Of a stretch of 64,000 bases of DNA, positions 1,607-60,997 are shown in pieces. Positions within the stretch are counted from its first letter, which is position 1, and each line of letters opens with the position of its first letter. The notes under the pieces were generated by a model, which worked only from the letters and a program-made list of their open reading frames with translations, made no database searches and was not told the origin of the DNA. The translations under genes were made by a program, and so were the position numbers. This stretch comes from a virus (Duplodnaviria > Heunggongvirae > Uroviricota > Caudoviricetes). The DNA is taken from IMG/VR virus record IMGVR_UViG_2721755676_000001; one strand, given 5' to 3'.

Positions 1607-2707
1607 TCACACTGCGCGGAATGCGATTTCGCCAGGTATTACTTCACCTTGCCAATACATTTGGGCAGCAACGCGATCTGCGAGGTCACGATAAATAGCC
1701 GTAAATTCACTATCTGGACGACTAATAACGGTTGGTGTTCCGTTATCCAGATCTTCACGAAGAGAGATATGAAGTGGCATTTGGCCTAACAACTGCGTGT
1801 TGTATTTCTCGGCCAGTTTCTGTGCGCCACCGGTGCCAAAAATTGGCTCGTGATGACCGCAGTTACTGCAAATATGCACACTCATGTTTTCAACGATACC
1901 CAGTACCGGCACTTCGACTTTTTCGAACATCACAATGCCTTTCTTCGCATCGATCAGCGCGATGTCTTGCGGCGTAGTTACCACAACCGCACCAGTTACA
2001 GGAATGTTCTGCGCCAGCGTCAATTGAATATCACCAGTGCCCGGTGGCATATCGAGAACGAGATAGTCCAGATCAGGCCACAGTGTTTCCTGCAACATCT
2101 GCATCAGCGCCTTGCTGGCCATCGGTCCACGCCACACCATTGCATTGTCGTCGGTGACCAGATAACCAATAGAGTTGGTTGCCAGGCCATGAGACATGAT
2201 AGGTGCCATGTGAGTACCGTCCGGTGAGGTTGGACGTTGGTTTTCCGCGCCCAGCATGGTTGGAATTGATGGACCATAGATATCGGCATCCAAAATACCA
2301 ACTTTCGCACCTTCAGCAGCCAACGCCAGTGCCAGGTTTACCGCCGTGGAGGATTTACCCACGCCGCCCTTGCCTGAGCTGACGGCGATAATGTTCTTAA
2401 CGCCATTAATGCCTGGTTGGTTTTTGACGCGCTTAAGCGTGGCAATGTTGTACGACAGCTTCCAGTCAATAGCCTTTGCGCCAGTGATACGGAGCAGATC
2501 ACCACTACATTGCTCTTTCAGGTCTTCAAAAGGCTTATTCCACACGAAAGGCATGATTAGTTCGACATGCAGTGTGTCATCCATCAACGCAACATGGTGT
2601 AACGCTTTAAGCGTAGTCAGGTTGTGTTTCAGGGTTGGGTGCTGAAAATTAGCCAGCGTACCGGCTACCATTGCTCTCAGGGCATCCGGCGATTTGGACT
2701 CGCTCAT
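1607..2707 (-). CDS. apbC: iron-sulfur cluster carrier ATPase Mrp/ApbC
   Basis: 366 aa; P-loop [11 protein letters not shown]-terminal CSNCGHH; near-identical to enterobacterial Mrp as recalled. Confidence 0.95.
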
Positions 2708-2864
2708 CCCGTCTCCTTTATTTTAATTTGCGCAATTGTCGCCTTGTAGTGTACTCCAGCTACGACATTTAATCATTTATGAGAAATGCTGTTATCACAT
2801 GGCAGACATAAGGCCATTTTGTTACTATCAAGCCCCTTTTCACTACAAAGAAGTAATGCCTACT

Positions 2865-4898
2865 ATGACCCAAGTCGCGAAGAAAATTCTGGTGACGTGC
2901 GCGCTGCCGTACGCTAACGGCTCAATCCACCTCGGCCATATGCTGGAGCACATCCAGGCTGATGTCTGGGTTCGTTACCAGCGAATGCGCGGCCACGAGG
3001 TTAATTTCATCTGTGCCGACGATGCCCACGGTACGCCAATCATGCTGAAAGCACAGCAGCTTGGTATCACACCGGAACAGATGATTGGCGAAATGAGTCA
3101 GGAACATCAGACTGATTTCGCAGGCTTTAACATCAGCTATGACAACTATCACTCGACGCACAGCGAAGAGAACCGTCAGTTGTCCGAGCTTATCTATACT
3201 CGCCTGAAAGAGAACGGTTTTATTAAAAACCGCACCATCTCTCAGCTGTACGACCCGGAAAAAGGCATGTTCCTGCCGGACCGTTTTGTAAAAGGCACAT
3301 GCCCGAAATGTAAAGCGCCGGATCAATACGGCGATAACTGTGAAGTCTGCGGCGCGACATACAGCCCGACGGAACTGATCGAGCCGAAATCAGTGGTTTC
3401 TGGCGCTACACCGGTAATGCGTGATTCCGAACACTTCTTCTTTGATCTGCCTTCTTTCAGCGAAATGTTGCAGGCATGGACCCGCAGCGGTGCGTTGCAG
3501 GAGCAGGTGGCAAACAAAATGCAGGAGTGGTTTGAATCTGGCCTGCAACAGTGGGATATCTCCCGTGACGCACCTTACTTCGGTTTTGAAATTCCGAACG
3601 CACCGGGCAAATACTTCTACGTCTGGCTGGACGCGCCGATTGGCTACATGGGTTCCTTCAAGAATCTGTGCGACAAACGCGGCGACACTACCAGCTTCGA
3701 CGAATACTGGAAGAAAGACTCCACCGCCGAGCTGTACCACTTCATCGGCAAAGATATCGTTTACTTCCACAGCCTGTTCTGGCCTGCCATGCTGGAAGGC
3801 AGCAACTTCCGCAAGCCGACCAACCTGTTTGTTCACGGCTATGTGACGGTGAACGGCGCGAAGATGTCCAAGTCTCGCGGCACCTTTATTAAAGCCAGCA
3901 CCTGGCTGAATCATTTTGACGCCGACAGCCTGCGTTACTACTACACTGCGAAACTCTCTTCGCGCATTGATGATATCGATCTCAACCTGGAAGATTTCGT
4001 TCAGCGTGTGAATGCCGATATCGTTAACAAAGTGGTTAACCTGGCCTCCCGTAATGCAGGCTTTATCAACAAGCGTTTTGACGGCGTGCTGGCAAGCGAA
4101 CTGGCTGACCCGCAACTGTACAAAACCTTTACTGATGCCGCTGAAGTGATTGGCGAAGCATGGGAAAGCCGCGAATTTGGCAAAGCTATCCGTGAAATCA
4201 TGGCACTGGCTGACCTGGCTAACCGCTATGTTGATGAACAGGCTCCGTGGGTGGTGGCAAAGCAGGAAGGACGCGATGCCGATCTGCAGGCGATTTGCTC
4301 TATGGGCATTAACCTGTTCCGCGTGCTGATGACGTACCTGAAACCGGTACTGCCGAAACTGACTGAACGTGCAGAAGCATTCCTGAATACAGAACTGACC
4401 TGGGATGGTATCCAGCAACCGCTGCTGGGCCATAAAGTGAATCCGTTCAAGGCACTGTATAACCGCATCGATATGAAGCAGGTTGAAGCACTGGTGGAAG
4501 CATCCAAAGAAGAAGTGAAAGCCACAGCCGCACCGGTAACTGGCCCACTGGCTGACGACCCGATTCAGGAAACTATCACCTTTGACGACTTCGCCAAAGT
4601 TGACCTGCGCGTGGCGCTGATTGAAAACGCAGAGTTTGTAGAAGGTTCTGACAAACTGCTTCGCCTGACGCTGGATCTCGGTGGTGAAAAGCGTAATGTC
4701 TTCTCAGGCATCCGTTCCGCTTATCCAGATCCACAGGCACTGATTGGTCGTCACACCATTATGGTGGCTAACCTGGCACCACGTAAAATGCGCTTCGGTA
4801 TCTCTGAAGGCATGGTGATGGCTGCTGGCCCCGGCGGGAAAGATATCTTCCTGTTAAGCCCGGATGCTGGTGCTAAACCTGGCCACCAGGTTAAGTAA
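2865..4898 (+). CDS. metG: methionyl-tRNA synthetase
   Basis: 677 aa from the ATG at 2865 ([29 protein letters not shown] motif, KMSKS, zinc knuckle CPKC..C..C, C-terminal tRNA-binding domain); divergent from mrp as in E. coli-type chromosomes. Confidence 0.95.
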
Positions 4899-5594: not shown

Positions 5595-5993
5595 ATGAAA
5601 TATGCACCATTGGCACTAATATTTTTTGTGCTTTCTGCTAATGCCACGCCAGTTGAAGAGCCTAACACTATCGTGTACCCACGATGCATGAAAATAGATC
5701 CGGAAACACACAAGCAATTACCTGGTTACAATATTGTTATGGATATAGGGAATAAATTTAAAATCGTTTCCCCAAATGGGAATTCGGTGATATCCATCTC
5801 GCTTGCCCAAAGTGAAAAAGATAGGAACATGTTCGACGCCTCAGTCGGCGATGTTTACTTCTCTCGTTACCATGTTCAACCTGATGGGAACTTTCTATAC
5901 TCAGCCTGGAGTGAAAAGGCGAAAGTTACAGTGCTGTGTAATGGTAAAAGCGGTGAGCGGCATTACGTTGACCCTATTCATTTCGAGAACTGA
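5595..5993 (+). CDS. hypothetical secreted protein (132 aa)
   Basis: N-terminal signal-peptide-like segment MKYAPLALIFFVLSANA; SD GAGGGA upstream. Confidence 0.55.
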   Translation: MKYAPLALIFFVLSANATPVEEPNTIVYPRCMKIDPETHKQLPGYNIVMDIGNKFKIVSPNGNSVISISLAQSEKDRNMFDASVGDVYFSRYHVQPDGNFLYSAWSEKAKVTVLCNGKSGERHYVDPIHFEN

Positions 5994-6122
5994 CTACACA
6001 AGTAAACAAATCAATCAGTTGATAATGGCGGTCACAATTTGATTCTTTTCTATAAGAATCCGTTGATCGCCACTACTCTTCTTCCATACCCGCAATCACA
6101 TCCTTAAATATCAATAAGTTAT

Positions 6123-6150
6123 AGTTGTTTATACAATCAAGAAAACAACT
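6123..6150 (+). promoter_or_regulatory. class I-type unit with split palindrome around a TACAAT -10-like hexamer
   Basis: AGTTGTTT-aTACAAT-ca-AGAAAACAACT. Confidence 0.35.
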
Positions 6151-6860
6151 GAATAACAGATCAACGAAACATCAACGCTTTCACCCGATTTGGTCTAAAA
6201 AATTGACGTTTTCACACATCACTGCTTATACCCGTAACTCTACGCAGCAGACAGCGCCACAGCGTCCAATTTTCACCACAGACGACCCAACACACTACCA
6301 ACAAAAACACACGCTCAAAATCGCTCCCGTTGCGTTACACAACCATATAAACAACTTATTTTCAGGCATAACAAAACAACTAAATAACACAAATGCCATT
6401 TCCAAAAACAACCAACCTCTTTATGGCAGGCTACCGAAAAGACCCACCTCTTCTCCCCAGGCTACCGGACAACCAACCTAACTTTCACAGGCAATCCGAA
6501 AACATTCATACGCGCGATACCCACGACACGCCATTCCCCAAACAGCGAAGAACACCAGAATCACTGAAACCCCAACGAAGCCTGTAACCGCAAGGTTTCT
6601 CTCAATCCCAAAAGACACGAAACACAACAATCACGGGAAATGCCATTACCCAATACACGAATAACTACAAAAGCCCTTCACGCACTCCAGACAAACAACT
6701 CAAACACAATAACGAAAGGAATCGCCCACCTGCCATTACTCCATACACGGAGAAGAACAATCACCAAAACGACGAGAACACCCCATAGAAGAACCACCGC
6801 AAAACGAACGAAACCACATACACCGACAGAGAGAACAACACACCCAATTCACCAACAGAA
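6150..6860. other. A+C-rich (G/T-depleted) non-coding tract with degenerate internal repeats
   Basis: A+C about 75% on the plus strand (45% A, 32% C in 6601-6660); repeated TGCCATTnCnCnATACACG (6642, 6731); ORFs here are low-complexity artefacts. Confidence 0.6.
6416..6510. repeat. three tandem ~31-bp repeats with core CAGGCTACCG
   Basis: Cores at about 6427, 6458, 6488; homologous array at 9549-9650. Confidence 0.6.
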
Positions 6861-6976
6861 ATAGTTGCCGTATAGAACATTCTGGAAGGAGTGAGCATTA
6901 ACGCCTATAGAGAGGTTGAGACAGATAAAACACAACATGTATAGCGAAGAAGCCAGGTATGTATAAGTGGGGAGGG

Positions 6977-7000
6977 AAGGAGGGGTGTCGCCTCCTTTTT
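6977..7000 (+). terminator. possible intrinsic terminator (AAGGAGG..CCTCCTT + TTT)
   Basis: 7-bp stem with 7-nt loop and short T-run; would end a transcript from the 6130 promoter. Confidence 0.35.
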
Positions 7001-7063
7001 CGTATTTATTCAACTCCTGATTTTATCCCCCGTAACACCCCTACGGTCAGCCTTCGGTCCATA

Positions 7064-7198
7064 CAGGGAAAAGGTTGCATCCCGCTACAGAAACGGCTGG
7101 GTTGCCTTCGGGGAACGGCTGGAGGTTTTCAGGGAAACGGTCGAGTTGCCTGTGTGGATTTCGGGAAAAGGCTCGATGCCGGTTCAGGAACGGCGGCG
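7064..7198. repeat. six direct repeats of GGGAAACGGCT-like core, 21-32 bp period (iteron-like)
   Basis: Copies at 7064, 7088, 7109, 7130, 7162, 7185; related array at 10247-10326. Confidence 0.65.
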
Positions 7199-7507
7199 TA
7201 CCGGCATAGCGAGAGGGAGAGTTGCGGCTACCCACCTGTAATGTGCGGGAAGAAGAGAGGCGCTCACGTAGGCGGACTTACTTACCGCTGGATTCCCTCT
7301 GAATGCCCAGCTACAGCGTAATTGTGCCAGACAGCCAACGGGTCACAATCGATTTCAGTAGGTTTTTGGGGAGAGGATTACTCTGCCACCAGCCACTTTC
7401 GGCCACTAAATCAGAATAATGTAAAAAGTGTACTCGGTACTGAACCTGAAAACTCACTGCCAAAACCACATTCACCGGAATAAAATCCTTTTTCGCCTGT
7501 GCGTTAT

Positions 7508-7542
7508 TGCGATAATAACACCATCAAGAAAACATGTTGTTT
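7508..7542 (+). promoter_or_regulatory. class I promoter/operator unit
   Basis: tTGcGATAAT (7507-7516), 10 nt spacer, AGAAAACATGTTGTTT (7527-7542), then SD AAGGA. Confidence 0.45.
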
Positions 7543-7554
7543 AAGGATTGCTTT

Positions 7555-7884
7555 ATGTTTACAAATATCGACATCAACCAAATCAAGAAATTAACTCAAA
7601 AAGAGTTTGATCAGTTTTATGAGTTAGAAGGTTGGTCTTCCACTCTGATCAATTCAAGATGGGTGCTGGAACTGATGACTCGTGATGACGCACCTGCTTT
7701 GATGATCAGCGACATGGGTGAAGATGCTGACTTTATGGATATGAGCGAATTTTGTGTGGACACATACAACCGCAGCCAGAAGTACTACTTCACATGCGAT
7801 GGCGAAAATGACGTGATTTCTAAGGTCTATCTTCACCTCGTCCAGCATTGGGACGTTCAGGAGTTTCTTGAAGTATTCGAGTAA
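7555..7884 (+). CDS. hypothetical acidic protein (109 aa)
   Basis: ATG at 7555 downstream of operator and SD; the listed 7534 start lies inside the operator. Confidence 0.5.
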   Translation: MFTNIDINQIKKLTQKEFDQFYELEGWSSTLINSRWVLELMTRDDAPALMISDMGEDADFMDMSEFCVDTYNRSQKYYFTCDGENDVISKVYLHLVQHWDVQEFLEVFE

Positions 7885-7990
7885 CCCCAACCAAAGCCAG
7901 CATTGCTGGCTTAATTTCTCTATAGCCGCAGGGAAGAACCTGCATATCGCTCATGCGCCTGATCAATATGCTTTGTAGCCGTTTTCTTAC

Positions 7991-8026
7991 TGGTATTATT
8001 TACGCCATTGAGAAAACAAGTTGTTT
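7991..8026 (+). promoter_or_regulatory. class I promoter/operator unit
   Basis: TGgTATTAT -10-like, then AGAAAACAAGTTGTTT (8011-8026), SD GGAG. Confidence 0.4.
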
Positions 8027-8037
8027 ACGGAGTTGTG

Positions 8038-8349
8038 ATGAAAAAATCATTGGTTCTTGGTCTGGACAAAGACCAGAAGAGAAAAGAGAAGCCTGCGCTG
8101 GTTGCTCAATTAACTTTGCTGGACATCGTTGCCAATGGGACCTCTATTCGTCTGTTCCGTGAAACAGCGGTGTCTTTCGATAAAAACACCTTTACTCGTT
8201 ATGTAATGAATGTTCGTCGCCAGCGTGGAAAAGGCTGGGTGGCATTTCAAAGAATGTGGCCGGAACATCAGCTCGAACTGGCTTTGATGGAAGTTAACCG
8301 CGTGGCCCAGCAAGAGATTCAGAGAGCATCAGTGATGGCAATAGCCTGA
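8038..8349 (+). CDS. hypothetical protein (103 aa)
   Basis: ATG at 8038 after operator and SD. Confidence 0.5.
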   Translation: MKKSLVLGLDKDQKRKEKPALVAQLTLLDIVANGTSIRLFRETAVSFDKNTFTRYVMNVRRQRGKGWVAFQRMWPEHQLELALMEVNRVAQQEIQRASVMAIA

Positions 8350-8383
8350 TAATGTGCAAGTGGTAATTAGTCGACCGTACGAC

Positions 8384-8413
8384 AGCCCCGCCATCCTTAC
8401 GGGGCTTTTTTTG
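8384..8413 (+). terminator. intrinsic terminator
   Basis: AGCCCCG..CGGGGCT followed by T7. Confidence 0.7.
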
Positions 8414-8476
8414 TATTGTAAGTACATACTTACGATCATAGAATAGAAAAATAACCAATACACTACGGAGAGTGAA

Positions 8477-8872
8477 ATGACCGTTAAACGCGAAAAACTG
8501 ACAGTTGATGTTTACTATGCCTCTGAAACCGCCGAAGGTAAGAATGTGGCAAAAATCACCGTTGTTACGTACAACACCGAAACTGGTGCCGAAGTCCAGG
8601 CCAGTACGATCGTGCGTAAAGGTGATGCCTCCGGCGGCGAGTACGCGACTCAATACCAGTCCATTCTCGATGCAACTAACCCGCTGCTGCTGAAAATCGA
8701 GAACTACTTCCGCCAGGTTGATGAAGAGGTGTTTGAAACCATGATGAATATGGTTAACACCGTATTCGCCTCCAGCCTGAATACCAACACCACCTGGATT
8801 GGCCAGTATGGTCTGCGCATTACCTCCGGCATTCCTGCTGACACCTTAATCCCTGAAAGCGTATTCGCTTAA
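8477..8872 (+). CDS. hypothetical protein (131 aa)
   Basis: SD GGAGAG; class II palindrome GTAAGTAcaTACTTAC upstream (about 8420-8436). Confidence 0.5.
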   Translation: MTVKREKLTVDVYYASETAEGKNVAKITVVTYNTETGAEVQASTIVRKGDASGGEYATQYQSILDATNPLLLKIENYFRQVDEEVFETMMNMVNTVFASSLNTNTTWIGQYGLRITSGIPADTLIPESVFA

Positions 8873-8881
8873 TCCTCTTTG

Positions 8882-8909
8882 AATGGCGCGTAAACCGCGC
8901 CATTTTCTT
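8882..8909 (+). terminator. intrinsic terminator
   Basis: AATGGCGCG taaac CGCGCCATT followed by TTTCTT. Confidence 0.7.
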
Positions 8910-8914
8910 ATGCC

Positions 8915-8955
8915 CGATAACAATTTGTTTTCTGCCTTATCTGATTTGTGAAAAT
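8915..8955 (+). promoter_or_regulatory. class I promoter/operator unit
   Basis: AACAATTTGTTTTCT plus TGtGAAAAT; near-identical to the unit at 1364-1397. Confidence 0.45.
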
Positions 8956-8989
8956 GATTTCACTGAAGCAACTTAATAAGGAAACCATC

Positions 8990-9364
8990 ATGGGGCTTGA
9001 TATCTACATCGAGACGCAGCCAAAAAACGATCTGAATAACGAGGCATCCAGAAAGCAGGTTGCTTACTTCCGTAAGTTCAATGCGCTCGTTGGGTGGATG
9101 GAGCGCAACGTAGGTGAAGTCGAAAATTGTGAGCTTTTAGAATTAACGATGAATGACATTTGTCTTCTGAAAGCTCATTTGATGCACATAAACGAAAGCA
9201 ATTGCGAAGAGTACTTGCCTACTCGGGAAGGTTTTTTCTTCGGCAGTCAGGAGTACGACGAAGGTTACTGGCATGACGTGGATAAGCTGAAAAAACTTGT
9301 GGAAGACCTGATCAGGAACCACGACTTTCACAATAACAGACTGACCTTCTGCGCCTGGTGGTAA
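8990..9364 (+). CDS. hypothetical protein (124 aa from internal ATG)
   Basis: ATG at 8990 with SD AAGGAAA; upstream in-frame starts overlap the -10 element. Confidence 0.5.
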   Translation: MGLDIYIETQPKNDLNNEASRKQVAYFRKFNALVGWMERNVGEVENCELLELTMNDICLLKAHLMHINESNCEEYLPTREGFFFGSQEYDEGYWHDVDKLKKLVEDLIRNHDFHNNRLTFCAWW

Positions 9365-9366
9365 AT

Positions 9367-9510
9367 ATGGGCGATTTCAAGAAACGCCTGAAGGAAAGAG
9401 CCGAGATGATCAGAAAGCAAAACGCCTCTTCTGTCATCAGATACGCAAGGCAGTTTAGTCGCAACAACAAATCAGTTGAGGAAAAGATCCTTAGCGTAAT
9501 CGGTCGATAA
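9367..9510 (+). CDS. hypothetical small basic protein (47 aa)
   Basis: ATG 2 nt after the preceding stop; not in the supplied ORF track (below length cut-off). Confidence 0.3.
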   Translation: MGDFKKRLKERAEMIRKQNASSVIRYARQFSRNNKSVEEKILSVIGR

Positions 9511-9548
9511 TTATTAAGGCCATCAGCATTGGTGGTCTTAAATGACCA

Positions 9549-9650
9549 TCCTGTTTCCCTCAGGCTAATAACACCAACCTCTTACCTCCAGGCAACCGAC
9601 AAACCCACCTGTTCCCTTCCGGCTACCGCAACTTTCCACTTTGACGCCTT
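9549..9650. repeat. three tandem ~32-bp repeats (CCTgTTnCCnTCAGGCTAnC core)
   Basis: Homologous to the array at 6416-6510. Confidence 0.55.
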
Positions 9651-9661
9651 ATTCGTACAAC

Positions 9662-9693
9662 GATAATTAACACCAACAAGAAAACAATTTGTT
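9662..9693 (+). promoter_or_regulatory. class I promoter/operator unit
   Basis: GATAAT, about 10 nt spacer, AAGAAAACAATTTGTT, SD AAGGA. Confidence 0.4.
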
Positions 9694-9714
9694 ATTTACG
9701 ATAAGGAATTAATC

Positions 9715-10197
9715 ATGAATTTTATCGCTACTGTAAACGCACCCGCACATGGCAATATCGCTGTAACGTTCTCTGACATTGAAAAACGAGTACTTGGTGC
9801 ATGGCGCGACAATGAGACGGTAGAACTGTCAGCACAAGAAAAATGCATTATTGCACGCGACATCATTGGCAATCGTCGTTACTCGCGGGTATTTGAGAAA
9901 GCATATGTGGTAAATTCTGGATTCGGAACGTTCGTCTTTCCGGTGCGCTCCGGGCGATTCTGCCAGTCCAAGCTGATTGAGTTCGCTACGCAGATTTCTG
10001 TCTGGATTAAAACTCAATCGTCGTTCAAATTTTCCGACGATGAAGCAGTATCGCAGGGGATGCGAATCGCCAACAATGCAATTAAATGCAAAAACATTAC
10101 GTATACCGCTGGCGTTGATACATGGAAACTGTTTTGCGCTAACTTTATGCTGAATGTATACACAAGCAACCGCATCCACATCCTTGATGGCGTGTAA
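9715..10197 (+). CDS. hypothetical protein (160 aa) flanked by repeat arrays
   Basis: ORF with SD; no recognisable domain. Confidence 0.5.
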   Translation: MNFIATVNAPAHGNIAVTFSDIEKRVLGAWRDNETVELSAQEKCIIARDIIGNRRYSRVFEKAYVVNSGFGTFVFPVRSGRFCQSKLIEFATQISVWIKTQSSFKFSDDEAVSQGMRIANNAIKCKNITYTAGVDTWKLFCANFMLNVYTSNRIHILDGV

Positions 10198-10206
10198 CTG
10201 AGAAGA

Positions 10207-10229
10207 GGGCCAGAAACGGCCCTTTCTCT
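10207..10229 (+). terminator. intrinsic terminator
   Basis: GGGCC agaaac GGCCC followed by TTTCTCT. Confidence 0.65.
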
Positions 10230-10246
10230 ATAGCCACCAGCTGCCG

Positions 10247-10326
10247 CAGGGAAATTTTCAGAAACGGCGAGGAACGTATTCATGAGCCGACGGGGAACGG
10301 CCAGGATTTTTTCGGGAAACGGCTGC
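10247..10326. repeat. direct repeats of GGRAAACGGC core (4 copies)
   Basis: Copies at about 10210, 10259, 10291, 10313; ATCAC/GTGAT-rich segment follows at about 10440-10500. Confidence 0.55.
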
Positions 10327-10731
10327 ATTCGCCTTTGTGTAGAAAAAACATCGGGAAGCTGGTGGAATCCAACCAGCGGTTGTCGGACAGGTGAGTGGGG
10401 AAAATTATGATGACTTTCGTCACCTGAGACATCCAGATTTCTTTCGTAGCATAATCACATACGTGATTAAGTGGTGTGATTATGTGAAAAATCACGCGCA
10501 CATAATACGCGAGCGGATACGGAACAAAACAAAATGCCGATCCGCGCCGACAAATAAACGCAGATCATAAAGCAAGACTAAAAGCCAATGATTAACTATG
10601 CGCTATAACGCGTTTTAAGCGCGTTAATGTGTTAAGTAATGGGTATGTACTGGCAAGGATATAAAAGCGCGTCTATGGCGTTATTTTGGCGCTTATTTTT
10701 ATGTTGTTGGAGTGAGTTAAAGACAATAAAA

Positions 10732-10803
10732 AACGCGCCATCAATGGCGCGTTATTGTGGAAGTATTGGAAACGAAAAAAGCGCCCATAGTGGGCGCTCG
10801 ATT
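10732..10803 (-). terminator. tandem intrinsic terminators for the minus-strand operon
   Basis: Minus-strand hairpins AGCGCCCACTATGGGCGCT + T7 (10780-10798) and AACGCGCCATTGATGGCGCGTT + T6 (10732-10753). Confidence 0.6.
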
Positions 10804-11306: not shown

Positions 11307-11957
11307 TTACGCTTTGAAAGCATCAGCCAAATAATTGTAGAAATCATTCTTGATAAAGCGATATTGCTGTGTACCAGCTTTTGCGCTTCCCATTCCTTTG
11401 ACTTTCTCAACAAGTCCAAGACGTTCGCAAAGATTGATCAACTGGTTGGCTTGAGTATAGCCAGCGTCCAATTTAATTTCACACGCTTTTTTAGCTTCAT
11501 TCATTAAATCGAAAACAGCGCCATTGGTGAACGTGTCGATCTCGTCGTTAATCATATCGATTAAAGCGAATACACGAGATCCAGACATATCAGCGATGGA
11601 ATAAACGCATTTGCCAGATTTAATTGATTTAACCAGATAAACCAGTTTTTCCAGAGAATAACTATTAGTCATTGCATCACGGAAAAATACTTCTGGCGCT
11701 TGTTTGCTTGCTTTAATCGCATAGTAGAAAACAGAGCATAATTTTTCGTCTTCTACAGCGTTTACGACGTTGTTGATGAAGTAAGCAAGTTTAGTGGTAG
11801 CAGCTTGCATATTTGCTTTGTCTGCTTTGGTGTGCGTACCATTTTTATAATGTTCATTATATGTTTGAGTTGCCAGATCTGCTTTTTCGCGCAGTTCATC
11901 GGATACAATGGAAGCAGCTTCAACGATGGATTTTTTAGAAATGATAATGTTAGCCAT
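11307..11957 (-). CDS. hypothetical protein (216 aa), AT-rich
   Basis: Long ORF; C-terminal region (LINLCERLGLVEKV) is winged-helix-like; no firm family call. Confidence 0.5.
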   Translation of the reverse strand: MANIIISKKSIVEAASIVSDELREKADLATQTYNEHYKNGTHTKADKANMQAATTKLAYFINNVVNAVEDEKLCSVFYYAIKASKQAPEVFFRDAMTNSYSLEKLVYLVKSIKSGKCVYSIADMSGSRVFALIDMINDEIDTFTNGAVFDLMNEAKKACEIKLDAGYTQANQLINLCERLGLVEKVKGMGSAKAGTQQYRFIKNDFYNYLADAFKA

Positions 11958-12254: not shown

Positions 12255-12773
12255 TTAAAACGGAAGGATTCGTTCAACCCAATCGAAGAAAATAAGTATT
12301 TTTCTACCGTCTTCCAACTTAAGTGTGACTAGACAGGCGTCAACGCCATCTGACGTTCCCTCAATTTCGCGACCGTCTGCCATGTAGACCCTTATAGATT
12401 TGCCGTTTTGGTAAGCCTGACGACATATCTTAAAAAAGTCACGACGTGATGGCTGATTAACCATCTGTTCATTGTTTAGCGTTAGTCGACCTGTGAATGA
12501 AGTGTCAACCTCTTCTATGCCCGACTCAATTGTGCTAATGCGCTCAAGAGGGAGCCTTATACGATTTGTGTTGCTAAGCGGATCTGGTGTGAGGTTCAGC
12601 TTATTTCTTGCGCTCAATAGCCCGTAGACATACATGCAAAATACTTGGCCGTCTTCGAGAGTGACTCTTACAGGAAATTTTGCACTCCGCCAGAAGAGCA
12701 AGGTGCGCTCAGCATGTTCGTAGTCTCGCGGCCAGACTTCAGCCGGTATGCCGTAGGTGATGTCTTTAACCAT
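12255..12773 (-). CDS. hypothetical protein (172 aa), AT-rich
   Basis: Isolated minus-strand ORF with downstream hairpin AACCGG..CCGGTT. Confidence 0.5.
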   Translation of the reverse strand: MVKDITYGIPAEVWPRDYEHAERTLLFWRSAKFPVRVTLEDGQVFCMYVYGLLSARNKLNLTPDPLSNTNRIRLPLERISTIESGIEEVDTSFTGRLTLNNEQMVNQPSRRDFFKICRQAYQNGKSIRVYMADGREIEGTSDGVDACLVTLKLEDGRKILIFFDWVERILPF

Positions 12774-16534: not shown

Positions 16535-16616
16535 AAACCTCTTTCCTTAGTGCCTTTTGTATGTTATTTGGCTATTATAATAAGTAAGTGATTACTTAAT
16601 GGATTGTAGCAATAAA

Positions 16617-17297
16617 ATGGATGTAAAAATCACGATTTTGCAGGTTGATGTTGCCAACCTTCGCCCGAATACCTGGAACACCAATTCGGTTGGTGCGCAG
16701 AATTTCGAAAAACTGAAAGGTTCTATCGAAAAATTGGGCTTTTTTAAGCCAATTTTGGCTCGTGAACTTGAAGATGGATTTTTTGAAATCCTCGGCGGCG
16801 AACATCGCTGGCGTGCTGCTATTGAGCAAGGGATTTCAACGGTTCCGGTGCTTTCTGTGGGCAAAATTAGCGATGTCGTAGCTAAACAGATGTCACTGGT
16901 GGACAACGAGCGATACGGTGAAGACGACCAAATCGCATTGCAACGCTTCATTGAAGAAATTCAGTCAGAACTTGACTATCAACTGTCTGAAATCGCTCCG
17001 TATGACGACGAAATCTCGATGGTTTTAGCAAAAGAGGCGGCAATCGACCTTGAAGCACTGGAGGCGTTGTCTCGTGGTAGTGATGAGCCTGTCGATACCG
17101 ACAAACGAGAGAAAACCGAACGTGTGGGTGCGGAACATCAGACCATGCGCTTCAAAGTAACTTTCGATGCGTCAGATCGTGTTGCAGAAACCATAAAAAA
17201 CATCATCAAAGAGCAGGCTATTAACACCGGTAATGAAATGGAGAACGCTGGTGAGGCTCTGGTGTGGCTGGTCGACTACTACAAGGAGCGTATGTAA
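16617..17297 (+). CDS. ParB/Srx-fold (ParB-like nuclease domain) protein 1
   Basis: GGEHRWRAA matches the ParB box II GERRxRAA pattern; class II palindrome TAAGTAAGTGATTACTTA overlaps the alternative 16599 start. Confidence 0.65.
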   Translation: MDVKITILQVDVANLRPNTWNTNSVGAQNFEKLKGSIEKLGFFKPILARELEDGFFEILGGEHRWRAAIEQGISTVPVLSVGKISDVVAKQMSLVDNERYGEDDQIALQRFIEEIQSELDYQLSEIAPYDDEISMVLAKEAAIDLEALEALSRGSDEPVDTDKREKTERVGAEHQTMRFKVTFDASDRVAETIKNIIKEQAINTGNEMENAGEALVWLVDYYKERM

Positions 17298-17965
17298 TGA
17301 CCAAAAAGTTTGAAATCGTATATCGCGACCCGGCAGATCTTATTCCCTATGAGATGAATGCCAAAAAGCATGATGAACAGCAGATCCGAGATCTAGCTGC
17401 AGCCATTAAAAAGCGCGGATTTGACCAGCCAATTACGGTCGATAAGAACGACGTAATTATTACTGGCCACGGCCGCCGTGAGGCTGCAATTTTTGCTGGA
17501 CTTGAGCGCGTACCGGTTATTGTTCGCGATGATCTCAGTGATGACGAGGTTCGTGCGAAGCGCCTTGAAGATAACCGACTTGCCAGCATTGATTACGATG
17601 CAATTAAGCTACAGAAAGAGCTTGAGTCGCTTGTTCTGGACGATATCGAGGTTTTCGGCTTTGAAGAGCGTGAGTTGAATGTTCTCGTTGGCAGTATGAC
17701 AGAAGAAATGGACACCGACTCGCTAGTTATCGATCTTGGCGAAGAAACTAAACGACAGAAGGATGAACACACCGAGATCAGTCGTGAAGTTGCAGCGGAA
17801 GAAGTACGTGTTGTCGACGTATTGGGCTTTAAAACGCTCCCTGCTGGCTCTGCCATTGTTGTTGGTGATTTGCTTGCCCACATGGAAGAAATGACGGGAG
17901 AAAGCGGGGTAGACGCATTTGTGGCATATGCGGAGAAGATCTCTTCCGGGGAGATGGCTGCATGA
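17297..17965 (+). CDS. ParB/Srx-fold (ParB-like nuclease domain) protein 2
   Basis: GHGRREAA motif in the N-terminal domain; TAATG stop-start overlap with the preceding gene. Confidence 0.65.
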   Translation: MTKKFEIVYRDPADLIPYEMNAKKHDEQQIRDLAAAIKKRGFDQPITVDKNDVIITGHGRREAAIFAGLERVPVIVRDDLSDDEVRAKRLEDNRLASIDYDAIKLQKELESLVLDDIEVFGFEERELNVLVGSMTEEMDTDSLVIDLGEETKRQKDEHTEISREVAAEEVRVVDVLGFKTLPAGSAIVVGDLLAHMEEMTGESGVDAFVAYAEKISSGEMAA

Positions 17966-19985: not shown

Positions 19986-20618
19986 ATGACGGTCGAAAAA
20001 GACGAGGTAAAAACTCGCCTGACACCAGCGGAGTGGGCCGAAGCTGAAGCCAAATGGACGTCAGGCGAATATACACTCTCAAAGCTGGAGGAAGAGTACG
20101 GCATTCGTCGTGAAACACTCTCCAGACATTTCAAAAAGCGAGGATTAGAGAAAGGCGCGGACTCTGTTGGGAAGATGGTTCGTGAGTCTCTTAAATCTGA
20201 CGCAGAGCTTCGCGCTAAAGCCCGTGCGGAAAAGATAGAAGAACGTCGTACACGTTATGACGGCTGGGCGTATGCGTTGGGGCAGATGGTGATGGTCGAA
20301 GTCACTACGGCCAAACGTGAGGGTAAGCCTTTAGGGGCGATTGAGGATTCTCTCAAGAGCTTACAGAGAGCCAGTAATACCCTTGCAAAATGCTTTGAAG
20401 TTTCGTCCAAAGCATTGGGCATGGATCATGCGGAAAATGACGAGGAAGAAATTCCGAACCTGGTATTTGGTGAGCTTACGCCTTCCCAGGTGGCGAAATT
20501 ACGTCAGGAAGACGACGAGCCTGAAATCATCGATGACGAATTGCTTGAGACGTTGGAAGAAGAAGCTCTAAGCGAATTTGATGCGACAGATGATGGAAGT
20601 GAAGGGGAGGACGAATAA
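19986..20618 (+). CDS. terminase small subunit (putative)
   Basis: 210 aa, helical N-terminus, very acidic C-terminus, directly upstream of and overlapping the large-subunit gene. Confidence 0.6.
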   Translation: MTVEKDEVKTRLTPAEWAEAEAKWTSGEYTLSKLEEEYGIRRETLSRHFKKRGLEKGADSVGKMVRESLKSDAELRAKARAEKIEERRTRYDGWAYALGQMVMVEVTTAKREGKPLGAIEDSLKSLQRASNTLAKCFEVSSKALGMDHAENDEEEIPNLVFGELTPSQVAKLRQEDDEPEIIDDELLETLEEEALSEFDATDDGSEGEDE

Positions 20619-21874
20619 TGGCAATCCCGTCCTCGCTCAGTCTTGTGCAACTGCATTCTGGACAGATGAAAGTCTTCCAGTCTCCGCATCGATTTAAAGT
20701 TGTTTGTGCTGGTCGACGCTGGGGAAAATCCCGGTTGTCGATCTCCACTATTATTCGTGCGGCGGCAAAGGAAAAAAAGCAAAGGGTCTGGTATGTCGCT
20801 CCTACTTACCAGATGGCTCGCCAGATTTTGTGGGACGATCTACAGGAAGTTCTGCCTCGTAAGTGGGTTAGGAAAAAGAACGACACCACGATGACAATCG
20901 TGTTGAAGAACGGTTCGGAGATCGCCCTCAAAGGTGCTGATAAGCCTGACACTCTGCGCGGCGTAGCGTTGCATTTTGTAGTGCTTGATGAATTTCAGGA
21001 TATGAAGGCTGACACCTGGTACAAGGTGTTACGACCTACTCTTTCATCGACACGCGGCGGTGCACTGATCATTGGTACGCCAAAAGGCTTCTCGGAATTT
21101 CACAAACTGTGGACTATAGGCCAGAACGTAGAGCTGCAAAGAAAGGGACAGTGGAAGAGCTGGCAGTTTGTAACTGCCGATTCTCCGTTTGTGCCTACGG
21201 CGGAAATTGAAGCTGCTAAGAACGATATGGACCCGAAATCGTTCGCTCAGGAGTACCTGGCGAGCTTTGAGAACATGTCCGGGCGCGTTTACTACCCGTT
21301 CGATCGTAACGTGCATGTAAAACTGCTTCAGTTCAACCCTCGGTTGCCTATATGGGTAGGGCAGGACTTCAACATTGACCCGATGTCTTCCGTAATTTTG
21401 CAACCTCAGCCAAATGGTGAGCTATGGGCAATTGATGAATTGGTGCTCTTTTCCTCTAACACGGCAGAAGTTTGTGATGAGCTTGAGAGACGCTTCTGGC
21501 GCTGGAAATCACAGGTAACGGTATTTCCAGATCCGGCAGGTGCTTATCGCCAACATGCTCGTGGGGAGTCTGACGTAGACATATTCAAAGAGAAGGGATT
21601 CTTACGTGTCGATTATTCGAAAAAGCACCCGCCAATTGCGGATCGTGTTAATGCTGTTAACCGAATGCTGATGTCCGCATCTGGAGATATCCGGCTGTAT
21701 ATCGATCCGAAGTGCAAGCATTTGATTGATTCACTGGAAAAAGTCATCTACAAGCCTGGAACACGAGATATGGATAAGACAGGTGGCATTGAGCATAGTG
21801 CAGACGCATTGGGCTATCCAGTACATCGTAGGTATCCAGTCAAAAACCGTGTTATTCTTGGTGGTTCTCGATAG
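20618..21874 (+). CDS. terminase large subunit
   Basis: Walker A CAGRRWGKS, Walker B VVLDEFQD, C-terminal nuclease-like acidic residues. Confidence 0.85.
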   Translation: MAIPSSLSLVQLHSGQMKVFQSPHRFKVVCAGRRWGKSRLSISTIIRAAAKEKKQRVWYVAPTYQMARQILWDDLQEVLPRKWVRKKNDTTMTIVLKNGSEIALKGADKPDTLRGVALHFVVLDEFQDMKADTWYKVLRPTLSSTRGGALIIGTPKGFSEFHKLWTIGQNVELQRKGQWKSWQFVTADSPFVPTAEIEAAKNDMDPKSFAQEYLASFENMSGRVYYPFDRNVHVKLLQFNPRLPIWVGQDFNIDPMSSVILQPQPNGELWAIDELVLFSSNTAEVCDELERRFWRWKSQVTVFPDPAGAYRQHARGESDVDIFKEKGFLRVDYSKKHPPIADRVNAVNRMLMSASGDIRLYIDPKCKHLIDSLEKVIYKPGTRDMDKTGGIEHSADALGYPVHRRYPVKNRVILGGSR

Positions 21875-49962: not shown

Positions 49963-50720
49963 TTGGTCAGGCGAACAGATTAATCCCTGAAATAGAAGAC
50001 TACAGCAAGGTCTTGTCTGAAATGCCGAGAGCGACGAGAATTATCGCTCTCGGTGAGTTCTATTTTATCTCCCGAGGTTTCGATCTAATTCGATTTACCG
50101 AATACGAGCTTGTTGATTCGGCCTATGAACGCTGTATTGTTGGCGAGTGTCTTGAGTCATGTGATCCTGATTACCAAGAGCAGGAAGTTAAGCGACTCAA
50201 ACGTGCTGGTTACACACCTCTTGAGATAGGAGCAGAAATTGAATCCTACAAGTTGCATGTGGGGCAGCCAGTCCAAACAGTCTTCCGCGTGGCCTACTGC
50301 GAGTTTCCAATCAAGGATAAATCTGGAGTAAAAGTCAGCGCCAAGCAGATTAGAGGGGTTTTTACTCATGCTGATTATATGGGATTAGGCATCGCAAGTT
50401 TTGCTTACCTTTATCTCGTAGATAAGTATCAGTACTTGGTTTGCGATACGTTACAGACGGTAAAAGGCGCAACTCTTTGGGCTGTGAGTATGCGCAAACA
50501 TGGACTGGTCGAAATTTACGATACGAAGAACGAAAATTTTATAGAGGAATTGGGTGAGGATGCCTGTGGCGTAAGTGGTTTTATTCCGTGGGATATCGGT
50601 AAGTCTGACGGAGGCCAGATGCGAAGACGTGAAGAGTGGGGGACTAATAAAATCAATCTCACCCCAGGTGCTTGTACTCATATAGTGAACATTCTGACTA
50701 AACGATCTATGAATCAATAA
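49947..50720 (+). CDS. hypothetical protein (257 aa)
   Basis: Overlaps the preceding gene end; followed by a strong terminator. Confidence 0.45.
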   Translation: MAPSLIGQANRLIPEIEDYSKVLSEMPRATRIIALGEFYFISRGFDLIRFTEYELVDSAYERCIVGECLESCDPDYQEQEVKRLKRAGYTPLEIGAEIESYKLHVGQPVQTVFRVAYCEFPIKDKSGVKVSAKQIRGVFTHADYMGLGIASFAYLYLVDKYQYLVCDTLQTVKGATLWAVSMRKHGLVEIYDTKNENFIEELGEDACGVSGFIPWDIGKSDGGQMRRREEWGTNKINLTPGACTHIVNILTKRSMNQ

Positions 50721-50741
50721 ACCCGCTACGGCGGGTTTTTT
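50721..50741 (+). terminator. intrinsic terminator
   Basis: CCCGC tacg GCGGG followed by T6. Confidence 0.7.
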
Positions 50742-50810
50742 GTTATTAAGCCCCCCCTATGTACCTATCATTAAACCTTTACACCGCAGCCGTAGGCATT
50801 TAGGCTATAT

Positions 50811-50834
50811 CACATATAAGAAAACAAGTTGTTT
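50811..50834 (+). promoter_or_regulatory. class I operator upstream of parA (CATATAAGAAAACAAGTTGTTT)
   Basis: Same TATAAGAAAACAA junction as at 5025-5046. Confidence 0.45.
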
Positions 50835-50869
50835 CAGACGATAATTATATACGCAAAGGGAACTCTCCA

Positions 50870-51538
50870 ATGACCAAGATCTTTGTGGTTGGCGGCACAA
50901 AGGGCGGGCCTGGCAAATCCACCGTTGCCCAGCAAATTGCCGTTTGCCTGAAAGTCAAAAAGAAGAAGAAGGTTTATATTACCGATATAGATATTCAGCG
51001 CACGACAACGAGCTGGTGTGAAGACCGTCGACAGAACGAAGACCTTGAGCTGATTCCTTTTGCATACGTTCAGGATGACATCATTAAGCACCTAAAATCG
51101 CTTCAGGGTAGAGCTGAGTTTGTAGTGGTAGATGCTGGTGGCTTCGACTCCGAAATTCAGCGACAAGCGATGCTGATGGCTGACGTTATCATTATCCCGC
51201 TGCGTCCTAAGCGTCGTGATTTGAAATCTTTACGTGACATCGATCCTATTATCGACAATGTTCGCAATGTAAACGATAAAGTGAAGGTCCGCGCGGTCAT
51301 GAACCAGTGCCCGGCTTTGCCATCACAAGTGTCTCGCATTCTGGCGGCTAAAGAGATTGTTGAGACGTTTGGAATCGAGTCTGCGCCAGTCAATCTATAT
51401 AACCGCAACGTCTATGATGATGCGGAAGAGTCTGGTCGTTCTATCTTTGAAATGACCGGTAGCGAGCGCGACAAAAAGGCGGAAGCCGAGTTTGAAGAAT
51501 TTGTAGATTATCTGTTGAGTCTGGAGGAAGAAGAATAA
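50870..51538 (+). CDS. ParA-family partition ATPase (small, Type Ib-like)
   Basis: Deviant Walker A GGTKGGPGKST; 222 aa with no N-terminal HTH; acidic tail. Confidence 0.85.
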   Translation: MTKIFVVGGTKGGPGKSTVAQQIAVCLKVKKKKKVYITDIDIQRTTTSWCEDRRQNEDLELIPFAYVQDDIIKHLKSLQGRAEFVVVDAGGFDSEIQRQAMLMADVIIIPLRPKRRDLKSLRDIDPIIDNVRNVNDKVKVRAVMNQCPALPSQVSRILAAKEIVETFGIESAPVNLYNRNVYDDAEESGRSIFEMTGSERDKKAEAEFEEFVDYLLSLEEEE

Positions 51539-51897
51539 TGTCCATGAAAATGGGTGACCTAGCAAAGCGCAAAGAGCCTGATGCACCGGCTAAGAACACA
51601 ACTCCTTTGCGCCAACCAGTCAGACCACAGGGACGCCCGACTCGTGGCAAAGAGAAAATTAAAAGCCGCACAATGTCACTGGAGGACGAATACTTCGAAC
51701 TGCTGGAGATGATGAAGTTCATCCCTCGCTTCGAGAAGTTCACTCGTTCTGACGTGATTCGAGCAGCCATTTTCCATCTGGCAGAGAAGTCACCGCAGGA
51801 AATCGAGGACATCGTGAAATTGAATGAGGCGATCACCGCTGCCGATGTCACGATGCGTACCGATGAAATCAAACGAGAGTTGATGAAGAAAGGTTAA
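51538..51897 (+). CDS. putative ribbon-helix-helix centromere-binding partner (ParG-like)
   Basis: ATGA overlap with parA; basic disordered N-terminus and RHH-like KSRTMSLEDEYFELLEMM segment. Confidence 0.55.
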   Translation: MSMKMGDLAKRKEPDAPAKNTTPLRQPVRPQGRPTRGKEKIKSRTMSLEDEYFELLEMMKFIPRFEKFTRSDVIRAAIFHLAEKSPQEIEDIVKLNEAITAADVTMRTDEIKRELMKKG

Positions 51898-51902
51898 AAA
51901 TC

Positions 51903-51933
51903 ATGCATTGGCGCGTACATTGCGCCAATGCAT
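51903..51933 (-). terminator. terminator hairpin (12-bp perfect stem) between convergent genes
   Basis: ATGCATTGGCGC gtacatt GCGCCAATGCAT; T-run only on the minus-strand side. Confidence 0.6.
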
Positions 51934-51949
51934 AACTACAGTGTCAGCT

Positions 51950-52717
51950 TTATGCCGCGCTAACACTATGTTCAGTCCTAACCACCCCAACCTTCACAAA
52001 AGGGCTACCGTAGCTTGGTGGCTTCTTGATTAATTTGCCTACATACAGTTTTCTAATATGCTCATCGGCTATTCTGCCAACAAATTCATAACGTTTTGTG
52101 TCGGGGCCAAGAGCTATATCCCTTGTAAAGTACTGCTGAGAACCGGCTTTGACCCAGCATTCAATCTGATAAACTTCCATTATCAGCCCACCATATGTAG
52201 CGTAGGCATATTTGAGATTCTCGTCTCTTGGAACCTTTGCCCATACGCCACGCGTAGCTTCATATAATGCCAGAGCGGACATTCCTGACTTGTAGGTGCT
52301 GTTTAGCAGGAAGGCAAGACCGGCGTGCTCAGGAGCAATTTCAGTTTCCTCTTGCAGCACTAAGTGATGGTAGGCGTCCAGTGATATTCTGCCCATCATG
52401 GAACCACTTCCTCGTACCTTATTCGTAAGCTCTCCGACCCCCATAAGGTCGATGCATGTCGCCTCAACAAGTTTGGCTGTGGTTTCATCCATACCATGAC
52501 GAAGTATATCTATGCCTAATTTTTTATTAGCCAAAAGTTCTTTGATCCGCATGGATTTGGGAGAGTCATCGGGATACTTGATGTGATCGAGACAACGAGT
52601 CGATTTGCCTTTTCCTATGTAAAACGGTCTTTTCATCTTGTCTTCTGTATCATAGAGACAGTAAACATAGTATTTAGCCTTATCCAATGATCTCGCGTAT
52701 ACCGATAAATCGTCCAT
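51950..52717 (-). CDS. GIY-YIG nuclease-domain protein (255 aa)
   Basis: N-terminal YYVYCLYD...RPFYIGKGK motif; C-terminal ~150 aa of unknown type. Confidence 0.6.
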   Translation of the reverse strand: MDDLSVYARSLDKAKYYVYCLYDTEDKMKRPFYIGKGKSTRCLDHIKYPDDSPKSMRIKELLANKKLGIDILRHGMDETTAKLVEATCIDLMGVGELTNKVRGSGSMMGRISLDAYHHLVLQEETEIAPEHAGLAFLLNSTYKSGMSALALYEATRGVWAKVPRDENLKYAYATYGGLIMEVYQIECWVKAGSQQYFTRDIALGPDTKRYEFVGRIADEHIRKLYVGKLIKKPPSYGSPFVKVGVVRTEHSVSAA

Positions 52718-60601: not shown

Positions 60602-60606
60602 ATTTA

Positions 60607-60693: not shown

Positions 60694-60697
60694 AATT

Positions 60698-60995: not shown

Positions 60996-60997
60996 CC

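Follow-up and report, generated by a model that had tools for sequence, protein, structure and literature searches.

Two families of direct repeats, here called A and B, occur at two loci of the 64,000-nucleotide stretch IMGVR_UViG_2721755676_000001 (the window, in what follows), which derives from an E. coli phage-plasmid of the SSU5/pHCM2 type. Both families are genuine, depart from chance and are conserved; they represent evolutionarily constrained cis-elements of phage-plasmids of this type, arranged as two ancient paralogous loci at the head of a rightward block of early genes. Most likely, both families act as DNA, that is, as docking arrays on which proteins build a higher-order complex, and not as iterons of a RepA-type initiator. 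More tentatively, but ahead of any other specific role, the arrays at the head of the early block may serve a replication origin of the lytic phase or an enhancer.

Family A is bipartite, with units of 30-31 bp reading ACCNACCT-N8-CAGGCTACCG, and family B reads CAGGGAAACGGCTGG with the core G[AG]AA[AC]GG (GRAAMGG). Within the 64 kb, both are confined to the four intervals listed for them in Table 1. A degenerate 26-nt pattern for family A, which was derived from the observed copies themselves and allowed up to three mismatches, found four matches in the window (6411, 6442, 9573 and 9603), all on the + strand, with 0.00 expected from shuffles. A degenerate third unit belongs to each array (6472-6501 and 9545-9570), and the units are spaced by 31 and 30 bp at locus 1 and by 30 bp at locus 2. 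The B core is present in six copies at locus 1 (7068-7193), spaced by 22, 22, 22, 31 and 22 bp, and in four copies at locus 2 (10213-10322), the first of which lies within a hairpin loop and which are accompanied by partial sites at 10249 and 10272. Pairs of B cores 22 bp apart occur five times in the window, every one of them in these loci, with 0.32 expected. A preliminary description of this DNA had located both families correctly to within a few bases; it had also given the spacing of the B repeats as 21-32 bp, of which the direct repeats themselves are real but the spacing is 22 or 31 bp.

The two loci have the same order of elements: A, about 0.6 kb of DNA, a hairpin, and B. In cross-locus BLAST comparisons, A units of locus 1 match locus 2 of other elements, and in the E. 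coli clade the sequence 3' of the locus 1 A array resembles a decayed copy of the promoter of locus 2. We therefore regard the loci as ancient paralogues, in agreement with what had been proposed before. A further possibility, that locus 1 is a decayed copy of the gene at 9715-10197 in locus 2, was dropped when tblastn gave no match.

Table 1. Features of the two repeat loci and of other regions of the window discussed in the text
Feature	Position	Strand	Basis or remark
Sigma70-type promoter of locus 1	6160-6232	+	TTGACG 6203-6208, 17-nt spacer, TTATAC 6226-6231
A/C-rich, G-poor non-coding tract	6060-6860	+	Skew, indels, no conserved open reading frame
Palindromic operator AAACAAnTTGTTT, 13 bp	6349-6361	.	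One copy in leader, 110 nt 3' of the locus 1 promoter
Family A, locus 1	6411-6501	+	Three tandem bipartite units: 6411, 6442, 6472
Family C (GCCATTACCCAATACACGGAGAAGAAC-like; repeat GCCATTACCCAATACACGGAG)	6529-6760	+	Three copies here
G-rich hairpin, terminator-like leader end	6974-7001	+	Called by terminator scan
Family B, locus 1	7064-7196	+	Six units, consensus (T-tract)C(A/G)GGGAAACGGCTGG, spacing 22, 22, 22, 31, 22
Hairpin closing the upstream gene block	9516-9539	+	Read from sequence; kept with stem changes in the locus 2 alignment
Family A, locus 2	9545-9632	+	One degenerate and two good units
Promoter and operator of gene 9715	9641-9694	+	TTGACG, 17-nt spacer, TAATTA (9641-9669); palindrome 9682-9694
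Conserved gene for 160 amino acids (phrog_1641), between the arrays	9715-10197	+	
Hairpin 3' of gene 9715	10200-10229	+	Loop holds B-like CAGAAACGG; read from sequence
13-mer CCACCAGCTGCCG, including Chi complement	10234-10246	+	
Family B, locus 2	10247-10325	+	Three full and two partial units, spacing 11 or 22 bp
Four AATCAC[AG] heptads as two palindromes	10453-10496	.	Partly conserved; zone of convergent terminators
Candidate binder, 216 amino acids (phrog_1513)	11307-11957	-	Predicted helical N-terminal domain and C-terminal winged helix
Candidate binder, FljA homologue with Hfq/Sm-like C-terminal domain	12255-12773	-	Pfam PF03614, E 1e-68
Candidate binder, type Ib ParA (222 amino acids) and ribbon-helix-helix partner (119 amino acids)	50870-51897	+	
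Accessory genes	1607-4898		Full-length MetRS and ApbC/Mrp Fe-S carrier
tRNA cluster	60527-61084		Four genes: Asn, Tyr, Thr, Ser

A 5-kb region of the window is 94-97% identical to Escherichia phages CMS-2020a, Cyrano (the pLF82 plasmid of strain LF82) and PhiR41_1, with partial similarity to Klebsiella phages and to Salmonella phage SSU5. Both loci are kept in every relative examined. The proposal of the preliminary description that they are phased direct-repeat arrays of the protein-binding kind is supported. Matches to window positions 6139-7520, at 67-99% identity, are present in 838 PLSDB plasmids from eight or more genera, with Klebsiella, Escherichia, Enterobacter, Salmonella (including pHCM2), Citrobacter, Cronobacter and Shigella among those named, and locus 1 is found in 242 of the 5426 complete E. 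coli genomes (4.5%), always plasmid-borne and with no annotated feature beneath it. E. coli, Salmonella and Enterobacter share one and the same B spacing, 22-22-22-31-22, with diverging spacers, and it is the same in Cronobacter minus one unit; 25 distinct B arrays have identical spacing at pairwise identities down to 60%. PhiR41_1 and Cronobacter pCS1 are each exactly one 22-bp unit short, and the main Klebsiella clade has four B units at 22 bp.

More distant elements retain the same parts. In Klebsiella p2 KpPF25, which has a different Rep cluster, and in Moellerella pW18-2-b, which comes from the Morganellaceae, the promoter, the A/C-rich tract, A-like units and the B core GGGAAACGGC are all present, and almost nothing else in the flanking DNA can be aligned. 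The A units of Moellerella are clear (ACCNACCT-N8-CAGG), with the half-site distance of 16 that is constant in all relatives, and those of Klebsiella p2 are degenerate copies only. Scanning IMG/VR with a two-unit B pattern returned the array only in SSU5-like contigs, the rest being chance matches or unrelated tandem iterons (for example L121), and a tandem-A pattern run over GTDB species genomes returned only Kluyvera and Buttiauxella, plus chance matches; in both collections the arrays are restricted to SSU5-like elements. Rhizobium phage V1VFA-S, a distant syntenic relative, has no comparable arrays. Two rearrangements involving locus 1 were also seen. A 52-kb plasmid carries IS100 immediately 3' of the locus 1 B array (L137 39774-41575, CP057431.1), and a 330-bp fragment of locus 1 (window 6138-6467, comprising the promoter, the leader and part of family A) lies inside Klebsiella IncHI1B/FIB plasmids of 143-453 kb, where it adjoins a type I restriction-modification system and IS903B (L011, L012 5001-5337); this fragment is presumably a recombination remnant.

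Locus 1 lies within a 1.4-kb stretch that carries no label from any annotation pipeline. Two TCAACG direct repeats (6162 and 6172) precede its promoter, the -35 hexamer of which is an inverted copy of TCAACG. In the alignment of nine relatives from five genera, the -35 and -10 hexamers are invariant or nearly so, and the promoter is recognisable even in Klebsiella p2 and Moellerella; the promoter scan missed it on account of the C that ends the -10 hexamer. From the putative start (about 6240-6245) to the hairpin, the tract of roughly 750 nt is composed of 39% A, 30% C, 16% G and 15% T, with a GC skew of -0.35 to -0.47, an AT skew of +0.14 to +0.57 and a C:G ratio of about 1.6-3.6 across ten consecutive 78-nt windows (roughly 780 nt). 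It is the sole strongly negative GC-skew stretch in the whole element, which was reconstructed at about 111 kb. As A and C together make up 69% of it, an RNA copied from it would be unable to fold on itself. The compositional bias, but not the sequence, is preserved in Moellerella.

Several observations speak for a non-coding tract. Its indels in the alignment are not multiples of three, PGAP places no gene in a stretch of roughly 1.4-2 kb in six relatives, and the open reading frames (ORFs) called over locus 1 in Cyrano, PhiR41_1 and SSU5 are mutually inconsistent. Within locus 1, the longest run of invariant alignment columns is formed by the family A units, and family C has up to about six to eight core matches in other clades. 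The stem of the hairpin at 6974-7001 is preserved through GC/GU/AU changes, with compensatory changes at one pair, and several of the B cores that follow have a T-tract on their 5' side. In lysogens of strain LF82, CYRAN_103, the ORF annotated over the tract, is at the detection floor, and CYRAN_102, just upstream of the tract, is expressed (57) (PMC9928086 table S1).

Judged from its sequence, family B is best understood as DNA: the strict 22-bp register with diverging spacers, the clean losses of whole units, the T-tracts and the hairpin in front of B all favour this view. Since B follows, at both loci, a hairpin with compensatory stem changes, it is probably not contained in the mature RNA. 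Coding over B was considered and rejected, no conserved ORF covering it; the G-richness of the sequence suffices to leave all three frames open, and deletions of 22-bp units break any frame. The level at which family A acts is less settled, as the A array of locus 1 lies inside the putatively transcribed tract and that of locus 2 between a hairpin and a promoter, where a role as DNA is more natural. Pairing between A and B in RNA was likewise rejected: the duplex energies within a locus fell in the range of shuffled sequences (z -0.4 to -0.6), and the best cross-locus pair reached only z -3.1. On the minus strand of the A units, an RfaH ops-like CGGTAGCCTG matches 8 of the 10 specified ops positions, and this reading was dropped because the motif is absent from the Moellerella A units. 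Searches against Rfam 15 at the gathering score gave only tRNAs in the window, and at E up to 5 over 5900-10400 they gave only a weak Trp_leader (19.5 bits, E 2), which falls inside coding sequence at 8327-8412.

How such arrays might work can be outlined as follows. In family B, asymmetric sites of 9-14 bp, several of them after a T-tract, would lie in helical phase (22 bp, two turns) and form an array onto which a protein encoded by the element would load side by side, and family A would be a trio of bipartite 26-31-bp sites. Together, A and B would nucleate the nucleoprotein complex of a lytic-phase origin, with locus 1 as the primary site. Transcription from a regulated promoter that is silent in lysogeny would run through the tract, whose + strand cannot fold, and would open the DNA for the DnaB-like helicase and the DnaG-like primase of the element itself. 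Locus 2 would then be an auxiliary copy, as in P4 ori/crr or SPP1 oriL/oriR. Three groups of observations lead us to consider an origin. First, the region is large, non-coding and rich in several kinds of repeats, and a conserved, regulated promoter that is silent in lysogens reads into it. Second, the element encodes DnaB-like, DnaG-like, ligase and UvsW-like proteins of its own, and its relatives RNase HI as well, yet it has no assigned lytic initiator or origin. Third, a winged-helix protein that is silent in lysogens is encoded next to locus 2.

The P4 and SPP1 origins resemble the present arrays in having two separated loci with the same repeats in the early region of an element with its own helicase and primase, and SPP1 has two box types per locus, as do A and B. 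Unlike these origins, the element described here has no identified initiator of the P4 alpha or G38P type and no adjacent AT-rich region. In the window ORFs that were scanned, no initiator family was detected, and the 216-amino-acid winged-helix protein is no more than a candidate. IHF-like sites are found only upstream of the locus 1 promoter, and GATC does not occur in 6160-7608.

Several points weigh against a lytic origin built on phased arrays. Neither locus has a DnaA box (at up to one mismatch) or, within or abutting the arrays, an AT-rich unwinding element (any 40-mer of at least 77% AT), and B is 52-58% G+C. Known R-loop primers, ColE1 RNA II among them, have the reverse composition of the C-rich, G-poor RNA that the promoter would give. 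Phage N15 uses a single RepA for both lysogenic and lytic replication, so that a separate lytic origin is not required. The A spacing is 27 and 26 bp in Moellerella, as opposed to 30-31 bp in Enterobacteriaceae, and B is irregular in Klebsiella p2, which means that helical phasing is not universal. Two defective derivatives without virion genes (CP057431.1 and CP043255.1; 52 kb and 62 kb), which retain rep and par, keep both loci, and this fits a role in plasmid maintenance at least as well. Finally, no binding protein was tied to the A and B arrays by any analysis made.

Candidates for such a protein can nevertheless be named, and the earlier statement that no cognate binder is identifiable was too pessimistic: the ribbon-helix-helix (RHH) protein (51538-51897), the 216-amino-acid winged-helix protein, the FljA homologue and two ParB_N proteins (16599-17965) all qualify. 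The gene for the winged-helix protein, which is conserved, lies next to locus 2 and is silent in LF82 lysogens (PMC9928086 table S1). The FljA homologue is full length ('repressor of phase-1 flagellin'), and a search with the profile of its family gives E 0.015-0.017 for two Hfq-like chains, 5dy9 and 2qtx, and E 0.64 for Hfq; by eye, its N-terminal half looks like a second Sm-like repeat. In Klebsiella, which is non-flagellate, the protein has 66% identity, and it can still be made out in Moellerella; because it is kept there, its target probably lies in the element and not in fliC. ParA (50870-51538) matches NF041546 at E 2e-33, below the curated cut-off of 180 bits of that model, as well as MipZ/AAA_31. 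Its 119-residue partner is a ParG-like RHH protein with the N-terminus MGDLAKR, a basic tail, the strand KSRTMS and the helix TRSDVIRAAI, and the label of RelE/ParE toxin that it bears in Cyrano is probably wrong. The KSRTMS strand is invariant even in clades where the protein is only 50% identical. Co-variation of the B core with the divergent RHH protein was uninformative: the core is unchanged in the 50%-identical clade, but so is the strand that reads the DNA. The product of the gene at 9715, which the preliminary description had also considered as a DNA-binding protein, does not stand up as a candidate, for its family is restricted to SSU5-like elements and its confident structure model has no fold match and shows no recognisable DNA-binding fold; the gene itself, hypothetical in that description, is a genuine conserved ORF.

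A second set of repeated sites is spread over the whole element. The palindrome AAACAAnTTGTTT occurs in 12 copies in the window, with 0.40 expected (1360, 4983, 5034, 6349, 7530, 8014, 8918, 9682, 19908, 19933, 50822 and 53750), each copy being intergenic and lying between the -10 hexamer of a promoter and a Shine-Dalgarno sequence. Among the downstream genes are parA, those for the DnaB-like helicase and the TerS-like protein, and early genes. The set is comparable to the 12 KorB sites of RK2, and it looks like the global operator of the element; with 7 bp between its half-sites, the palindrome would be an apt site for the RHH partner of ParA.

An alternative that we consider unlikely, while still of some weight, is that the region forms a transcription boundary or insulator. 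The tract would then be a Rho-loading (rut-like) zone that stops read-through from the accessory genes expressed in lysogeny into the early lytic genes, and A and B would bind a regulator that activates, blocks or loops transcription units. The C:G bias over roughly 780 nt without a conserved ORF is what a rut-like leader would show in its sequence. Expression falls from CYRAN_102 to the floor at CYRAN_103, 8 bp separate the end of the locus 2 A array from the -35 hexamer of the promoter that follows, B directly follows a conserved hairpin at both loci, and the only GC-skew reversal of the element is kept in Moellerella. However, the loci are paralogues and their shared layout is possibly inherited rather than functional, and no promoter follows A in locus 1. 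Moreover, nearly invariant units of 26 nt are more than Rho loading requires, and the only evidence for Rho-dependent termination, the drop in expression at CYRAN_103, is indirect. Rut regions such as lambda tR1, and sponge RNAs such as CsrB and CrcZ, are like the tract C-rich, G-poor, unstructured and untranslated, with repeated short motifs; unlike them, the tract extends over about 750 nt with conserved units of 26-30 nt, its transcript is putative, and it has no Rfam match.

Doubtful, too, and slightly more so, is a partition centromere, in which the arrays would be dispersed parS-like sites for the RHH partner of the type Ib ParA. The par operon (CYRAN_28/29) is expressed in lysogens and has no repeats beside it (none within 50500-52100), the invariance of the KSRTMS strand parallels that of the B core in the same divergent clades, and both loci are kept in the two virion-less derivatives with rep and par. 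On the other hand, the arrays are 45 kb away from the par operon, inside the early lytic block, and a centromere would account neither for the presence of two unrelated motif families nor for the A/C-rich tract. The usual periodicity of RHH centromeres is 7-11 bp, compared with 22-31 bp here. A better candidate for the RHH site and centromere is the copy of AAACAAnTTGTTT directly upstream of parA (50822), with its half-sites 7 bp apart. TP228 parH/ParG, the omega heptads of pSM19035, pB171 parC1/parC2 and the dispersed centromeres of N15 resemble the present system in combining a ParA of about 220 residues and an RHH protein with non-coding direct repeats at several loci; what sets the arrays apart from type Ib centromeres is their distance from the par operon, their period of 22-31 bp and the competing palindromic operator.

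Action at the RNA level appears improbable. Here the leader (about 6240-7000) would be an unstructured A/C-rich RNA whose families C and A bind the Hfq-like FljA homologue, either as a leader or as a sponge. FljA binds the leader of the fliC mRNA. In support, the tract is 69% A+C, the full-length FljA homologue with its Hfq/Sm-like domain is kept in non-flagellate Klebsiella and in Moellerella, and the fliC leader has ACCCAATAC / CCCAATACGT in common with family C. However, k-mer sharing with the fliC leader is overall at chance level, so that this likeness is only a lead. The A units of locus 2 between hairpin and promoter, and the B units after hairpins, are probably outside any stable RNA, the 22-bp register of B with its diverging spacers argues for DNA, transcription of the tract is undetectable in lysogens, and no Rfam family matches. 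A 12-mer, TGAGCCGACGGG (match at 10283), is also common to the fliC leader, is not conserved in other clades, and is treated as chance. A bolder form of the idea, which is about as doubtful, makes locus 1 the RNA half of a phage RNA-protein switch, in which an induced leader of about 750 nt would be read by the tandem Sm/Hfq-like FljA homologue. The homologue would either gate Rho-dependent termination before the early lytic genes or be titrated by the RNA, and Salmonella FljA would be a domesticated copy of this phage regulator, one that recognises in the fliC leader a motif like CCCAAUACG.

It is highly improbable that the arrays are packaging sites (pac or cos) recognised by terminase or by the ParB_N proteins. 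Two ParB_N genes and a DNA-binding TerS-like gene upstream of the gene for the large terminase speak for it, and bipartite repeat arrays do occur at P1 pac, SPP1 pac and lambda cosB. However, the terminase genes (19986-21874) are 10-13 kb downstream of the arrays with gene blocks of the opposite strand between them, and the arrays are kept in derivatives without terminase.

The arrays are not the RepA origin of the plasmid, and as far as this origin is concerned the suggestion of replication-origin iterons made in the preliminary description has to be abandoned. In a 99%-identical relative (CP057685.1), a RepB-family (Rep_3) initiator lies about 27 kb upstream of the arrays, outside the window (L010 24541-26294), and its two sides carry 11 and 4 ACCGCTGACAGCATA iterons, 15 in all, in a layout like P1 oriR/incA; a GATC-rich block and GGATCTATC repeats are also found at this origin. 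It has no A or B motifs, and the arrays have no ACCGCTGACAGCATA iterons. Iterons are repeats of about 17-22 bp in a register of about 22 bp; B agrees with this, A is spaced at 26-31 bp, and an adjoining rep gene, DnaA boxes and an AT-rich element are all absent. Like the arrays, iteron origins (P1 oriR/incA, F oriS/incC, R6K) have direct repeats that are asymmetric, keep to a 22-bp register and form more than one cluster per replicon; unlike them, the arrays have no rep gene beside them, no DnaA boxes or AT-rich 13-mers, and two motif families per locus. Therefore, in spite of the 22-bp phasing of B, which is typical of iterons, A and B are almost certainly not RepA iterons or a copy-control (incA-like) array, since the Rep_3 initiator has 15 unrelated iterons of its own and neither site contains the motifs of the other.

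The surroundings of locus 2 have further features. Its promoter region (9641-9694) is a copy of a 55-nt module of promoter, 5' untranslated region and operator also present at 7487 and 7971. The module is repeated before successive small early genes (7487-7541, 7971-8025 and 9639-9693), with further copies at about 6100-6160 and 8904-8933 (the latter inverted), and recalls the mobile promoter cassettes of T4-type phages. The hairpin at 10200-10229 keeps its stem through a C-G to G-C swap between clades. In the SSU5, pHCM2, Enterobacter, Cronobacter and Klebsiella relatives, CCACCAGCTGCCG occurs also within the third A unit, so that in these five other clades it flanks the cassette of promoter, gene and hairpin, being found in the A unit and just past the hairpin of the gene. 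A second Chi-type site is at 10358-10365, and the window has 14 sites of Chi (GCTGGTGG) or its complement where roughly 2 are expected, which is approximately the density of the E. coli chromosome.

Further 3', the preliminary description had reported a segment rich in GTGAT/ATCAC; four AATCAC[AG] heptads are indeed there, of which only the GTGATTATGTGAA core is common to other clades. Transcription converges at 10430-10800, a zone with several terminator hairpins in tandem (GCGCC...GGCGC), which are bidirectional in part; a conserved long stem-loop lies at about 10520-10560, and weak promoter-like sites are seen at 10384-10455. This zone might encode a small RNA.

Elsewhere, the window carries the block of small rightward genes, the FljA-like gene, the UvsW-like helicase gene, the two ParB_N genes, terminase and a virion module, and it encodes a type Ib ParA, a DnaB-like helicase, a DnaG-like primase and a ligase; RNase HI is encoded in relatives. 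The accessory genes include one for an S24 (UmuD/LexA-like) peptidase, as annotated in relatives. In LF82 lysogens, the ApbC/Mrp gene (CYRAN_99) is about 9-fold over background and the MetRS gene (CYRAN_100) is near background (PMC9928086 table S1).

In the searchable literature, we found no description of these repeats, nor of a lytic origin or centromere of the SSU5 type. Phased repeats that bind proteins are in themselves a familiar kind of element. The unusual point here is the combination of two motif families per locus, two paralogous loci and a strand-asymmetric untranslated tract, together with conservation across two families of Enterobacterales and yet absence from annotation in a clinically common element. 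Phage-plasmids of the SSU5/pHCM2 type are common in clinical Enterobacterales and can carry resistance genes. A block of 1.4 kb, shared across genera, unique in its strand composition and holding four or more motif families, appears in no annotation examined, and it is the most obvious place for the missing cis-functions of the element, such as the lytic origin, the centromere or the wiring of the lysis-lysogeny decision. Identification of the binder would aid plasmid curing, incompatibility typing and the control of induction, and it could explain roles of the FljA family outside flagellar phase variation. If true, an RNA-protein switch with the Hfq-like FljA homologue would raise the interest of these loci considerably.

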